Origin: Candidatus Omnitrophota bacterium
Lineage (GTDB): Bacteria; Omnitrophota; Gorgyraeia; Gygaellales; Profunditerraquicolaceae
Direction of reading: 5' to 3'
Assembly (NCBI GenBank): GCA_022710715.1
Contig: JAKLGJ010000004.1
Location: 320,166 to 384,165 of the forward strand
DNA: 64,000 bases
This document shows, in pieces, positions 7,750 to 56,238 of the stretch. Each line of letters opens with the position of its first letter. The stretch's first letter is position 1. The notes below the pieces were generated by a model. It worked only from the letters and a program-made list of their open reading frames with translations. It was not told the origin of the DNA and did no database searches. Made by a program: the position numbers and the translations under genes.

Positions 7750-8319
7750 TTATTTCTTTTCCTTCAAGAATTTCCTCAATTTCTCCAGCGATTCCCCTAA
7801 TTCCTTGAATTCATCGTATTGACGCAGGTGCACCGGCGGGATTTCCTTGTTTTCACTAAGCATATCGATGCTGGTCTTTAAGCGGTAGATGGGGCCGGCG
7901 ATACGGTGAGAGAAGATCAGGGACGTGACGCCGACGAAGAGCAGGATAGAGAAGATCACGAAAAGCATTCTGATCTTCAATTCCGCCCACTGACGCAGCA
8001 CGGAAGAATACGAAATTTTCGAGACCTTTTCGATGGAAATAAGCTCTTTCAACAGCCCGGCGACCGTGGTCAATTCTTCCTGGGCGAAGTTCTTCTGCTG
8101 GAATTGCTGTAACGTATCCTGGTAACGCTGGTTGACCTGGGAGATTTCGCGGGTTAATTTTGCCTGTTCTTTTTTTAAGATCAATTCCCCGCTGACAACG
8201 AGGATCTGGATGCAGAAGATGCTCATGAGCAGCGCAGGCAATACGCTCAAGGCGATATACTTGAGTTGGCTGGATGGATGGATAAAATACCTTTTCCGCA
8301 CTATTTTATTTCCTGGCAT
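7750..8319 (-). CDS. membrane protein with HAMP-like linker
   Basis: Two TM segments flank a periplasmic stretch, then 'RIAGPIYRLKTSIDMLSE' (HAMP-like). No output domain follows. Confidence 0.45.
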   Translation of the reverse strand: MPGNKIVRKRYFIHPSSQLKYIALSVLPALLMSIFCIQILVVSGELILKKEQAKLTREISQVNQRYQDTLQQFQQKNFAQEELTTVAGLLKELISIEKVSKISYSSVLRQWAELKIRMLFVIFSILLFVGVTSLIFSHRIAGPIYRLKTSIDMLSENKEIPPVHLRQYDEFKELGESLEKLRKFLKEKK

Positions 8320-8437
8320 ATGTACCTCCTATGGCCGTTCGTACAGCATAAACCCATTATATACTAAGAGGCATTCCGGGCCAATAAATTTATTTTATAA
8401 AGAAGAAAAATATGGTATAGTGAAGCAAAGGGAGGAT

Positions 8438-9298
8438 ATGAGTAAAAGAGGTTTCACTTTTCTGGAACTCGTAATCACCATAATCTGTATCGGCATACTC
8501 GTTGCCATTGCCGTGCCGCAGTTTTTGAGTTTTGCCCGCGAAGCGGTCAGGGCCGCAGAGCAGGGGAGTGTTCAGGGGATTAAAGCCGGCATTCGGATAT
8601 ACGGCATAGATTCAGTGGTGAAGAACCGCTCCCCGCAGTTCCCCGCGACCCTGGATACGGCGGGCGCCACCTACGCTTCCTATTCCAATCCGCTCTTCAG
8701 TTCAGTTCTCAAGACGCCGATTACCGAAAGCCGCTGGTTAAAGATCGACAGCACTATTTATCAGGGGCCGACCGAAACCTATTATTATTATGTTCCTGCC
8801 GCCGGATTGTTCCTCGAGTATAGCGGCAGCACCGATGTGGGCGCCAGTACCGCGCCGAGCGTTTTTCTTCCCGCGTTAGCCTTCAGCGGGTACAATACGT
8901 CGCAATGGGGAGCCGCCAACGGCGGATTATATTCGCCGTGGTCCGGTTACCCGCTGGCCATGAGCGTCAATTTTCAGCAGGGGGGGACCTATACCTTCGA
9001 TATCGCCGCGATCAATAATGCCAATCACCCGGGATTTGCCAATCCTCCCCGTACGGATTGGCATCTGCCGACCGGCTATAACACGTTCAATGTGCGCGTG
9101 CTGGTCGACGGGGTTCCGGTCGGCGGCAATGTCAATATTACCGCCAGCGACACCGATATCAACCGGGGCTCGATAAGCACCTATATCGGGGCGGGCCAGC
9201 ATACAGTCAGCCTGGTCTGGCTCAATGACGCGTGGACTCCCGCCGAGAACGGCGACGCCAACATCCAGTTTCAGGATATTATCATCCGCAGACAATAG
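8438..9298 (+). CDS. prepilin-type N-terminal cleavage/methylation domain protein (type IV pilin / pseudopilin-like)
   Basis: 'MSKRG|FTFLELVITIICIGILVAIAVPQ' is a class III signal with Gly(-1)/Phe(+1)/Glu(+5). GGAGG RBS lies 5 nt upstream of the ATG. The longer ORF 8132.. is an upstream read-through. Confidence 0.8.
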   Translation: MSKRGFTFLELVITIICIGILVAIAVPQFLSFAREAVRAAEQGSVQGIKAGIRIYGIDSVVKNRSPQFPATLDTAGATYASYSNPLFSSVLKTPITESRWLKIDSTIYQGPTETYYYYVPAAGLFLEYSGSTDVGASTAPSVFLPALAFSGYNTSQWGAANGGLYSPWSGYPLAMSVNFQQGGTYTFDIAAINNANHPGFANPPRTDWHLPTGYNTFNVRVLVDGVPVGGNVNITASDTDINRGSISTYIGAGQHTVSLVWLNDAWTPAENGDANIQFQDIIIRRQ

Positions 9299-9769: not shown

Positions 9770-9855
9770 AAAGCAGTTTGTTAGATGCCCTCCGGACCGG
9801 ACTTCATGTCCGGTCCAGGAAGTTCCTTTGACTGACAACCGGCATAAGGGCATAG

Positions 9856-10170
9856 ATGAGCGGAAATAACTGGGTTCCGGTTATAGCGGAGAATAAATTA
9901 AAAGCAGAGAGTTCAAAGGTGGTGTTTCCCCGAGGGATAGCAGTTTTGCTTATCCGTAAGGCCGCCGATGAACTCTTTGCTGTTTCCAATAGATGCGCGC
10001 ACATGTCCTGCCCGTTGCGTGACGGAAAACTCGATGGATACGTCTTGAGCTGTCCCTGTCATGATTGGCGTTTCGATATCCGTACCGGACGATTCCTGGA
10101 TGCGCCGGAAATCGCTATCCGGGTATACGAGACCAGGATTGAAGAGGGGAACGTTTGGGTTAAACTGTAA
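9856..10170 (+). CDS. Rieske [2Fe-2S] domain protein
   Basis: 'CAHMSCPL' ... 'CPCHDWRF' are the two Cys-x-His Rieske boxes. Confidence 0.8.
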   Translation: MSGNNWVPVIAENKLKAESSKVVFPRGIAVLLIRKAADELFAVSNRCAHMSCPLRDGKLDGYVLSCPCHDWRFDIRTGRFLDAPEIAIRVYETRIEEGNVWVKL

Positions 10171-10180
10171 GGAGTCGGCC

Positions 10181-10435
10181 ATGAAAACGGTAAAAGTGTT
10201 CGCGTTAAGCACCTGTCCCTGGTGCAAGAAAACAAAGCAGTTTTTCCAGGATCGCAAGATCCCGGCAGAGTTCTTTGATTACGACCTGGCCGGCGCCCGG
10301 GAACAGGAAGAGCTTCTCGCCGAAATGGAACGCTTCGGCGGCGGCAATTCTTTTCCCCTGGTGTTGATCGGCGAGGAAGCGGTGGAAGGGTACGATCCCG
10401 ATCAGTTCTGCGACTTGCTGGAGATACCCAAGTGA
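10181..10435 (+). CDS. glutaredoxin-like protein
   Basis: 'VFALSTCPWCKKTKQFF' is a CPxC thioredoxin-fold active site. 84 aa. AAGGAG RBS upstream. Begins 11 nt after the upstream Rieske stop. Confidence 0.75.
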   Translation: MKTVKVFALSTCPWCKKTKQFFQDRKIPAEFFDYDLAGAREQEELLAEMERFGGGNSFPLVLIGEEAVEGYDPDQFCDLLEIPK

Positions 10436-10767
10436 ATCCGGCAGCGCGCAAAAAGGCTTTACGCTATTTTTTCCAGAAAGTCGTCGACCCGCTGGGCTAC
10501 AAGTTCACTCCCGATGAAGAACTGGCGGAATTCTGTCTGGAGCAGGAAGTTATTCTGGAACGGCGTTATGGAGTCCCGTTTTGCCCCTGCAAGCGCATCA
10601 CCGCCAACCGCTACGAGGATATGCAGATCGTCTGTCCGTGCATTCCGTTCCATCGGGAGCATTTCGACGCCATGAAACGCTGCTGGTGCGGTTTGTTCGT
10701 GCATAAGGATGTAGTTGATCCCGCGACACTCAAACAGGTATCCGAAAAGAAATTCAGGAAAGGCTGA
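10432..10767 (+). CDS. ferredoxin-thioredoxin reductase catalytic-subunit-like protein (FTR beta family)
   Basis: 'CPCK'...'CPCIPFHREH'...'CWCGLF' reproduces the CPC/CPC/CHC cysteine arrangement of the FTR catalytic chain. GTG start overlaps the glutaredoxin TGA. Confidence 0.65.
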   Translation: MNPAARKKALRYFFQKVVDPLGYKFTPDEELAEFCLEQEVILERRYGVPFCPCKRITANRYEDMQIVCPCIPFHREHFDAMKRCWCGLFVHKDVVDPATLKQVSEKKFRKG

Positions 10768-10768
10768 C

Positions 10769-11098
10769 ATGCTGATAGAAGTCGCCAGGGTCGCGGATAT
10801 CGCGGACGGCGGGATGATCGCCGTGAGCGTCAAAGGCAAGGAAATCGTTATCTGCAATTACGAAGGCAGGTTCTACGCGGTGAGCCGCGCCTGCGGCCAT
10901 CTCAACGCGTACCTGAACAGCGGAACCCTTGACGGCTATATCCTGACCTGTCCGTTGCATTTCGCCCAGTTCGACATTACTACCGGCGAAGCCTTGAGCG
11001 GTCCGGTGCCGCCGGATCCCGATCCGCTCCACGCCACAGCCGATCTCAAAACCTATCCGGTGCAGGTCAAGGCCGATACCATCAGTATCGATATCTGA
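10769..11098 (+). CDS. Rieske [2Fe-2S] domain protein (NirD-like)
   Basis: 'CGHLNAYL' ... 'CPLHFAQF' Rieske boxes. ATG lies 1 nt after the FTR stop. Confidence 0.8.
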   Translation: MLIEVARVADIADGGMIAVSVKGKEIVICNYEGRFYAVSRACGHLNAYLNSGTLDGYILTCPLHFAQFDITTGEALSGPVPPDPDPLHATADLKTYPVQVKADTISIDI

Positions 11099-55413: not shown

Positions 55414-56238
55414 ATGATCACGATCGCGGTGGACAAAAAAATATGCAAGGGCGACGGCAGGTGCGTGGAGATCTGCCCGATGCAGATACTCAAGATGAAC
55501 GCGCAAAAGCAGATCCCGGAGTTCATTGACGGCGGCGGGGAGATGTGCATTAATTGCGGCCATTGTTTCGCTGTCTGTCCGCATGGGGCGATCCGGCTTT
55601 CCACGATGGGCGTCGAGGATACCGCGCGGCTTGATTATGCCGCGCTGCCCGGGCCCGCACAGGTGGAGCTGCTGCTCAAGGGGCGGCGCTCGATCCGGTC
55701 ATATACGGATGAGCCGGTGTCAAAGCCGTCGGTGGAAAAGCTGCTGGATATCGCCCGGTACGCACCTTCCGGGATAAATCGTCAGCCGGTAAACTGGGCG
55801 GTGGTGCTGGGTAAAGAACGGGTGCAGACACTGGGAGCGCTGACGGCGCAGTGGATGCAACAGCTTATCGCGGCGAAATCTCCCATGGCCGAATCGCTGC
55901 GCTTTGACCGGCTGGTCGCGGCCCGGGAACAAAGCAAGGATCTGATCTGCCGCAATGCGCCCTGCATGATCATTGCCTACGGTCTTAAGGACGATCCGAT
56001 GGTCCCGCAGTCCTGCACGATTGCCGCGACGTATCTGGAGCTGGCGGCATTCGGTTCGGGGTTGGGCGCCTGCTGGGCGGGGTATGTGAATATGGCGGTG
56101 AATATGTCGGAAGTCGCGCGCAAATTCGTCGGCATTTCCGCGCACGCGCAAGCCGGCGCCGCGATGATGGTCGGGTACCCCGAATATCGTTACAGCCGGA
56201 TCCCGGCGAGAAATCCCGCCAGGATCATCTGGAAATAA
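55414..56238 (+). CDS. 4Fe-4S ferredoxin domain + nitroreductase family protein
   Basis: N-terminal 'CKGDGRCVEICP' and 'CINCGHCFAVCP' cluster motifs, followed by a nitroreductase fold ('RRSIRSY'). Confidence 0.75.
   Translation: MITIAVDKKICKGDGRCVEICPMQILKMNAQKQIPEFIDGGGEMCINCGHCFAVCPHGAIRLSTMGVEDTARLDYAALPGPAQVELLLKGRRSIRSYTDEPVSKPSVEKLLDIARYAPSGINRQPVNWAVVLGKERVQTLGALTAQWMQQLIAAKSPMAESLRFDRLVAAREQSKDLICRNAPCMIIAYGLKDDPMVPQSCTIAATYLELAAFGSGLGACWAGYVNMAVNMSEVARKFVGISAHAQAGAAMMVGYPEYRYSRIPARNPARIIWK

Follow-up and report, generated by a model that had tools for sequence, protein, structure and literature searches.

A conserved Rieske, glutaredoxin and FTR-type gene cassette in an Omnitrophota bacterium: a candidate Rieske-linked disulfide reductase module

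The subject of this study is a compact gene cassette in a stretch of 64,000 nucleotides from a Candidatus Omnitrophota bacterium (the whole stretch is called the window below), and the disulfide-reducing relay that it may encode. The cassette lies at window positions 9856-11098 and consists of four open reading frames (ORFs) on the + strand, coding in this order for a Rieske protein (Rieske-1, R1), a glutaredoxin-like protein (Grx-like), a homologue of the catalytic subunit of ferredoxin:thioredoxin reductase (FTR; the homologue is called FTRc-like) and another Rieske protein (Rieske-2, R2). An earlier note on this DNA had described the same four small genes, and all of them were found on the + strand with their identities upheld by Pfam. 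The genes are tightly packed. R1 ends with the stop codon at 10168-10170 and the ATG of the Grx-like gene is at 10181, which gives a spacer of 10 nt and not the 11 nt stated previously, while the 4-nt overlap between the Grx and FTRc genes (GTGA) and the 1-nt gap between FTRc and R2 had been given correctly. Shine-Dalgarno-like sequences, AGGAG, GGAG and AGGAAAGG, can be read ahead of the second, third and fourth genes, respectively. In a consensus scan for terminators, no such site was found at the three gene junctions. The sole match within the cassette is a 5-bp stem at 10679-10692, inside the FTRc coding sequence, and its strength is not above that of chance matches in shuffled sequence.

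The FTRc-like gene (10432..10767, + strand, GTG start) encodes a stand-alone domain of 111 aa, the Grx being a separate, overlapping gene. A check against the PF02943 (FeThRed_B) profile gave 6.4e-26 and 90.9 bits, compared to a cut-off of 22, over profile positions 4-103 of 106, and the protein is indeed the FTR catalytic-subunit homologue that the note took it for. Its cysteines C51-P-C53, C68-P-C70 and C84-W-C86 form the motif CPC-x14-CPC-x13-CWC, which by analogy presumably holds a [4Fe-4S] cluster and a redox-active disulfide; the disulfide would be C53-C86, as inferred from the Synechocystis FTR. Among structures in the PDB, the sequence matches the FDR 4tpu (2.2e-11) and the Grx/FDR fusion 7pwe (8.4e-9), while the classical FTRc chains follow at ca 1e-3. 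The AlphaFold2 model of the protein has a pLDDT of 93.4, and in Foldseek searches its TM-scores are 0.70-0.71 with 7pwe and 4tpu but 0.55-0.60 with classical FTRc, the 13 best PDB matches all being FTRc or FDR chains. As judged from the sequence and the predicted fold, the nearest solved relatives are the disulfide reductases 4tpu and 7pwe, and not the chloroplast-type FTR. In a comparison of 150 family representatives, the x13-CWC signature marks the clade of the window protein, whereas FDR-like clades have x12 with CYC, CFC, CHC or CLC.

The Grx-like protein (10181..10435, + strand) has a thioredoxin fold of 84 aa with the active site C12-P-W-C15. It matches PF00462 with 3.7e-10 and 40.3 bits, above the cut-off of 22.9, which agrees with its previous description as a CPWC glutaredoxin-like protein of the operon. 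With the YruB-type model (TIGR02196) it reaches 43.7, the cut-off being 88.55. Among solved structures it comes nearest to three archaeal Grx-like proteins, 3nzn, 5cax (the methanoredoxin of M. acetivorans) and 3ic4, and a further match is to the N-terminal Grx domain of the fusion 7pwe. Its presumed role is direct dithiol/disulfide exchange with the FTRc-like enzyme.

The two Rieske proteins are of distinct types. R1 (9856..10170, + strand) is a soluble Rieske [2Fe-2S] protein of 104 aa with the pattern CAH...CPCH and matches PF00355 (2.4e-19) and PF13806 (1.2e-16). In addition to the ligands C47/H49 and C66/H69, it has an extra cysteine pair, C52/C68 (CAHMSC...CPCH), of the kind which in bc1/b6f-type Rieske proteins forms a loop-bridging disulfide. 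The bc1 motif reads CPCHGSHY, in which the Ser and the Tyr raise the potential. The corresponding motif of R1, CPCHDWRF, lacks both, and the potential of R1 is not one that can be guessed from the sequence. No signal peptide is visible in R1. R2 (10769..11098, + strand) is a soluble, dioxygenase-ferredoxin-type Rieske [2Fe-2S] protein of 109 aa with the pattern CGH...CPLH and the ligands C42-G-H44 and C61-P-L-H64, in which the extra cysteine pair is absent. It matches PF00355 (2.4e-16) and also PF22543, is scored best by the HcaC-type (dioxygenase ferredoxin) NCBIfam models, although below their cut-offs, and has the naphthalene dioxygenase (NDO) ferredoxin 2qpz as its top PDB match (3.6e-18). 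For R1 the nearest solved relatives are likewise dioxygenase Rieske ferredoxins, for example CarAc (1vck), and both proteins resemble most the Rieske ferredoxins CarAc, NDO ferredoxin, TodB and BphF. The label NirD-like, which had been attached to the second Rieske protein, suits R1 better (63.4 compared to 31.6 bits with TIGR02378), but both scores are below the cut-off of 74.65.

None of the four proteins receives an equivalog-level name from NCBIfam, and the public annotation of the enzyme is merely "ferredoxin-thioredoxin reductase catalytic chain/domain". R1 fares worse. On a 1.62 Mb contig (Ga0116241_10000002) of the JGI dataset 3300010429, where the region L084:5425-5751 corresponds to window 9856-10170, R1 is not called and an 89-aa ORF on the reverse strand is annotated in its place, and another contig (L085) has R1 annotated as a shortened product of 74 aa. 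Annotation-based surveys would therefore overlook part of the cassette. Charge complementarity of the four proteins was also considered, but the pI values, suggestive in the window, were inconsistent across orthologues and the idea was dropped.

We now turn to the conservation of the cassette. When one genome per species was scanned, 127 FTRc-like relatives were obtained, and the loci of the best 80 of these were compared. Their FTRc identity is 63-75%, with Omnitrophota nearest at 75%. The 80 loci represent more than 10 bacterial and archaeal phyla. The bacterial carriers are Omnitrophota, Nitrospirota, Acidobacteriota, Vicinamibacterales, Thermoleophilia and other Actinomycetota, Myxococcota, "delta proteobacteria", Elusimicrobiota, Spirochaetota, Chloroflexota, Bacillota and Ca. 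Ferrigenium, and the archaeal ones are Methanolobus, Methanomethylovorans and Methanococcoides (Methanosarcinales), Bathyarchaeia and a metagenome-assembled genome (MAG) of Promethearchaeota (Asgard). Using the four window proteins as tblastn queries, the order and orientation R1-Grx-FTRc was found to be the same in 80/80 loci. In 79 of them the gene immediately before Grx is an R1 homologue, the remaining locus ending with its contig before R1. The adjacency of Rieske and FTR genes, on which the note had staked its proposal, is thus kept in related genomes. The same gene order in 80 loci of different phyla is far beyond what chance would give, and the high FTRc identity across the two domains points to strong constraint together with lateral spread.

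The full arrangement R1-Grx-FTRc-R2 is present in 60 loci. In 12 loci, all from Methanosarcinales, there are one or two extra R1-type copies upstream and R2 is absent; 6 loci have R1-Grx-FTRc alone, at least one of which (L007) ends at a contig end, and 2 loci are truncated or frameshifted. Some Bacillota resemble the Methanosarcinales in having R1-type Rieske proteins only, with no R2. The junctions are mostly within -4 to +12 nt, and R1 and Grx are usually translationally coupled by a -4 overlap. The CPC-x14-CPC-x13-CWC motif and its spacing are the same in 79/80 FTRc orthologues, in which R75, H77, D79 and H91 are also invariant. CPWC is present in 71/81 Grx orthologues. The pattern C-x-H-x-x-C...C-x-C-H, that is, the four ligands and the extra cysteine pair, is found in 79/79 R1 orthologues, and the R1-type cysteine pattern also in 14/15 of the extra archaeal Rieske copies, while 62/62 R2 orthologues keep CxH...CxxH and lack the extra cysteines.

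Further evidence comes from natural gene fusions. A HMMER survey over 1.84 billion cluster representatives gave 287 clusters of the family, and the long ones were scanned with Pfam. The three activities are joined pairwise in different lineages. One protein (P0122) is a Grx::FTRc fusion, 55% identical to the window FTRc and flanked by R1 and R2 genes. Two others (P0133 and P0141) are FTRc::Rieske fusions; they share 49% identity, align collinearly from end to end and have a linker of ca 15 residues, and can therefore not be products of a frameshift. In a metagenome scan (L087-L104), another 13 FTRc::Rieske loci were matched over essentially full length. FTRc and Rieske share one reading frame in 14 loci. 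Two of the loci are on long contigs, of 1.59 Mb and of 236 kb, and overall the fusion is found in at least 15 loci. The C-terminal part of these fusions (P0133, P0141 and L087-L100) is a Rieske domain with the R2 cysteine pattern, and wherever the sequence extends upstream of the fusion, FTRc::Rieske is immediately preceded by a Grx gene and a separate R1 is absent. There are also a Trx::FTRc fusion of 201 aa with CCC as its last motif (P0158), FTRc::rubredoxin fusions of FDR type (P0168, P0196 and P0200) and, inside the same CWC-x13 motif class, rubredoxin::FTRc fusions (P0174 and P0267), one rubredoxin::FTRc fusion adjoining a Grx gene. Taken together, the sequences suggest that Rieske and rubredoxin may be interchangeable one-electron modules around an FTRc core.

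It is important to point out that not every apparent fusion was counted. P0123, P0124, P0127, P0129 and P0131 consist of garbled or partial sequence and were set aside as frameshift or assembly artefacts. These five, P0148 and others are 50%-identity cluster representatives that are chimeras, one half FTRc and the other half Rieske or Grx. Apparently, such representatives arise from frameshifted metagenome assemblies over the overlapping junctions, and inflate the diversity of the family in clustered databases. Separately, three long proteins of 623-648 aa were noted, namely P0218, which has Grx::FTRc followed by a long C-terminal region with a Pfam DUF3422 domain, and P0226 and P0237, which have Grx and FTRc at a similar length.

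The genes around the cassette were examined by all-against-all clustering of the ORFs of the 80 loci. Only a nitroreductase family, present in 27/80 loci, is common across phyla. Since no other gene is, the module can be regarded as self-contained and the window flanks, a 117-aa membrane protein of no family and an AsmA-family protein (Pfam), as not belonging to it. In most Methanosarcinales loci the nitroreductase begins -3 to +12 nt past FTRc, which is the position of R2 in bacteria, while in Thermoleophilia it is located upstream of R1. Other flavoproteins are an NADPH-dependent FMN reductase (FMN_red), which follows R2 in a MAG of Nitrospirae and in Ca. Ferrigenium, and a FAD-dependent oxidoreductase, which stands upstream in divergent orientation in six loci of actinobacteria, most of them Thermoleophilia. 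A Fe/Mn superoxide dismutase follows 13-74 nt past R2 in most of ca 12 Thermoleophilia loci, and a peroxiredoxin (AhpC-TSA) is located 20 nt upstream of an R1 - Grx::FTRc - R2 arrangement (L106:2056-2667, and also L107 and L108). Among the recurrent families of the 144 neighbours of the 80 loci there is no ferredoxin, NirB, ribonucleotide reductase (RNR) or oxygenase. The FTR variable subunit (FTRv, FeThRed_A) was not matched in the cassette, in the two window flanks or among the top families of the 144 neighbours. Ferredoxin, FTRv, NirB and oxygenase are unseen in the cassette and its nearest neighbours, in agreement with the earlier note, which had named the Rieske proteins as the only electron-carrier candidates of the operon.

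A number of other features were noted at these loci. The peroxiredoxin gene of L106-L108 has an in-frame TGA at the position of the peroxidatic Cys (FYPADFTFV-TGA-ATE); judging from this sequence, it probably encodes a selenocysteine protein, which gene callers split into products of 57 and 142 aa. In Methanosarcinales, as in L021 (6977-12296, - strand), the cassette and the nitroreductase are followed on the opposite strand by 3-4 consecutive paralogous ORFs of 319-499 aa whose N-terminal sequence looks like that of nitrogenase component 1 (NifD/K/E/N-like), and similar ORFs are present in L027, L028, L037, L045, L051 and L061. A nitroreductase homologue also exists in the window at ca 55675-56232, but it is ca 45 kb away and 25-33% identical over most of its length, and was judged uninformative.

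In the window itself, the cassette is preceded by a structured 5' leader (9785..9853, + strand) between the upstream membrane-protein gene and R1. The RNA fold of 9770-9858 has an energy of -33.1 kcal/mol (z = -3.4 relative to shuffles), and contains a perfect, GC-rich 9-bp hairpin (9794-9816) within an outer stem 9785-9791 / 9847-9853 that abuts the R1 start codon. This leader could terminate the gene before it or act in the control of translation, and is at most a possible part of the cassette system. The promoter scan gave no sigma-70-type site, a consensus that says little for Omnitrophota, and the Rfam and tRNA scans gave nothing of relevance at the locus. Further upstream, before the membrane-protein gene, the ORF at 8132-9298 (+ strand) has a type IV pilin-like N-terminal segment, KRGFTFLELVITIICIGILVAIAVPQF, deep within its longest frame; its true start is probably near the methionine of MSKRGFTF, and it is unrelated to the cassette.

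In the interpretation that we favour, and that we hold to be probable though by no means certain, the four genes form one operon and the cassette is a self-contained, ferredoxin-independent iron-sulfur disulfide reductase module of the FTR/FDR family, which is fed by Rieske proteins and reduces its own Grx-like protein. The Rieske-FTRc-Grx relay proposed in the earlier note is supported at the level of sequence. From the conserved motifs we infer the cofactor content, and from the gene neighbourhoods the upstream reductase and the client. Electrons would pass from a flavoprotein to the Rieske [2Fe-2S] cluster, further to the [4Fe-4S] cluster and disulfide of FTRc, then to the CPWC site of the Grx-like protein and finally to thiol-dependent clients. 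The flavoprotein would probably be an enzyme of the nitroreductase family, FMN_red or a FAD enzyme. At FTRc, two successive one-electron transfers from Rieske would bring about the two-electron reduction of the CPWC disulfide, and the Rieske proteins would fill the role that is thought to belong to the fused rubredoxin domain in the Methanosarcina FDR. R2 is probably the partner proximal to FTRc, because the R2 type is the one that is fused to it, but in the lineages that lack R2 the R1-type proteins must be sufficient on their own. The reduced Grx-like protein would probably serve clients such as peroxiredoxin, in defence against oxidative stress.

A number of points weigh against this interpretation. 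The midpoint potentials of Rieske ferredoxins are usually ca -170 mV or higher, while those of typical Grx/Trx disulfides are -200 to -300 mV. The reduction would therefore be thermodynamically unfavourable, except where the Rieske proteins are held strongly in the reduced state or the flux is drawn on by an irreversible sink, for instance peroxide. The same thermodynamic puzzle holds for the rubredoxin domain of FDR. Furthermore, the catalytic His of the classical FTR (in CHC) is a Trp in the window FTRc, and the presence of two distinct, separately conserved Rieske types is left without explanation. As to the neighbours, the nitroreductases of archaea and of Thermoleophilia share only 25% identity, the associations with flanking genes are restricted to lineages, and no flavoprotein, superoxide dismutase or peroxiredoxin adjoins the cassette in the window.

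The potentials bear directly on the possibility that the module runs in reverse, as a dithiol:Rieske oxidoreductase. FTRc would then oxidise the reduced Grx-like protein and, through it, cell thiols, and deliver single electrons to Rieske, from which they would go to an acceptor such as a flavoprotein, an O2-detoxifying enzyme or a nitro compound. The potentials of Rieske clusters normally lie above those of Grx/Trx disulfides, 79/79 R1 proteins have the cysteine pair typical of the high-potential bc1/b6f Rieske proteins, and the adjoining nitroreductase-family and FMN_red flavoproteins could equally be acceptors or donors. However, the CPCHDWRF motif of R1 lacks the Ser and Tyr hydrogen-bond donors of the bc1 CPCHGSHY, the characterised FTR and FDR enzymes act as disulfide reductases, and an adjoining peroxiredoxin and superoxide dismutase suit a reductive, antioxidant role. 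We therefore regard the reverse direction as unlikely, though it is the strongest of the competitors. The extra cysteines of R1 suggest another option, which is compatible with the favoured interpretation, namely that R1 is itself the client and that C52/C68 forms a regulatory or catalytic disulfide, reduced via R2, FTRc and Grx so that R1 is switched or repaired. The cysteine pair is present in 79/79 R1 proteins and 14/15 extra archaeal copies but in 0/62 R2 proteins, a protein with no visible signal peptide would seldom carry a structural disulfide in the cytoplasm of an anaerobe, and it is R1 that is usually coupled to Grx by the -4 overlap, whereas the R2 type fuses to FTRc. On the other hand, the FTRc::Rieske lineage has Grx and no R1, so that R1 is not the sole client, and in Methanosarcinales and some Bacillota, which lack R2, the R1-type proteins are the sole candidates for one-electron carriers besides the flavoprotein. 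We regard R1 as the client as rather improbable.

Finally, the cassette could hold a conventional, ferredoxin-dependent FTR/FDR with its Grx, in which case the Rieske genes would be bystanders or NirD-type subunits. The NirD model does give the best NCBIfam score of R1 (63.4 bits), and the absence of ferredoxin from the operon proves little, as ferredoxins are usually encoded elsewhere. But that score is below the 74.65-bit cut-off, R1 and R2 keep all four cluster ligands, which NirD typically lacks, and there is no NirB in the window flanks or among the 144 neighbours; a NirD/nitrite reductase assignment was accordingly rejected. Bystander genes are, moreover, incompatible with the 80/80 synteny and the in-frame FTRc::Rieske fusions, and we consider this option very improbable indeed. 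Returning to the Rieske-fed disulfide reductase, a wider proposal can be made more tentatively, as a possibility that we would not yet call probable: dedicated Rieske proteins, on a horizontally mobile cassette, would be a third electron input of the FTR family beside ferredoxin and the fused rubredoxin, in its boldest form with R2 feeding or draining the FTRc cluster and with the R1 cluster and cysteine pair forming a second site of iron-sulfur cluster and redox-active disulfide, served by Grx, or else with the whole module reversed.

FTR-type enzymes are the textbook case of converting one-electron iron-sulfur chemistry to two-electron disulfide reduction, but few of the donors and clients that they have in the cell are, to our knowledge, established for non-photosynthetic organisms. 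The cassette offers a defined donor and substrate set of Rieske, FTRc and Grx proteins that is open to direct reconstitution. Its carriers include strict anaerobes largely without glutathione (methylotrophic methanogens, Omnitrophota and Bathyarchaeia) as well as usually aerobic lineages (Thermoleophilia and Vicinamibacterales). If Rieske proteins indeed drive or drain an FTR-type enzyme, soluble Rieske proteins would gain a role in organisms without oxygenases, and an oxygen-tolerant route of thiol repair, independent of low-potential ferredoxin, would become possible. No description of a Rieske-FTR association was found in the searchable full-text literature, although a mention in Balsera et al. 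2013 (Planta) or Wei et al. 2015 (Biochemistry) is possible.

Among the known systems, the M. acetivorans FDR (4tpu) is closest to the window enzyme, being the best sequence match among solved structures and a top fold match (TM 0.70). Both have the CPC...CPC...CxC scaffold and an aromatic residue in its final motif, lack an FTR variable subunit and use an extra one-electron iron centre. In FDR this centre is a fused C-terminal rubredoxin, whereas in the present system one or two separately encoded Rieske proteins take its place (a sister lineage has the fused form), and the motif class also differs (x13-CWC, compared to x12-CYC/CFC of the FDR-like family representatives). In the Grx/FDR fusion of Desulfotalea psychrophila (7pwe), the N-terminal domain matches the window Grx and the C-terminal one the window FTRc. 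This fusion shows a Grx-like domain as the built-in partner of FDR-type enzymes, and P0122 is the equivalent fusion in the present clade, but the 7pwe chain itself has no Rieske domain and belongs to another motif class. The classical chloroplast/cyanobacterial FTR (FTRc+FTRv; 1dj7, 2pvo, 7bzk) has the Pfam family, the six cysteines, the core fold and, presumably, the chemistry of two one-electron inputs per reduced disulfide in common with the window enzyme. It is more distant in sequence (ca 1e-3) and fold (TM 0.55-0.60), and its last motif is CHC with x16/x8 spacing, in place of CWC and x14/x13. It also requires FTRv, a plant-type [2Fe-2S] ferredoxin as donor and thioredoxin as substrate, while the window operon has Rieske and Grx-like proteins.

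Two further systems resemble the proposed relay in its logic. In Methanosarcina barkeri, an FDR/NrdH-like system reportedly feeds the class III ribonucleotide reductase. An FTRc-family enzyme is reported to reduce there a small dedicated Grx/NrdH-like redoxin that is encoded alongside and serves a specific client; the operon names this client, NrdD, whereas the window has no adjacent RNR gene and its input module would be Rieske. The three-component Rieske oxygenase chains, in which electrons pass from NAD(P)H via a flavoprotein reductase and a Rieske ferredoxin to the terminal enzyme, provide the ferredoxins to which R1 and R2 are nearest, and flavoprotein genes recur beside the cassette as well. 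The terminal enzyme would here be an FTR-type disulfide reductase, with no oxygenase gene in the window flanks or nearest neighbours. As far as can be judged from the sequences, the cassette is a widespread member of the known FDR/FTR family of systems, to which the dedicated Rieske electron-transfer partner would be the new addition.

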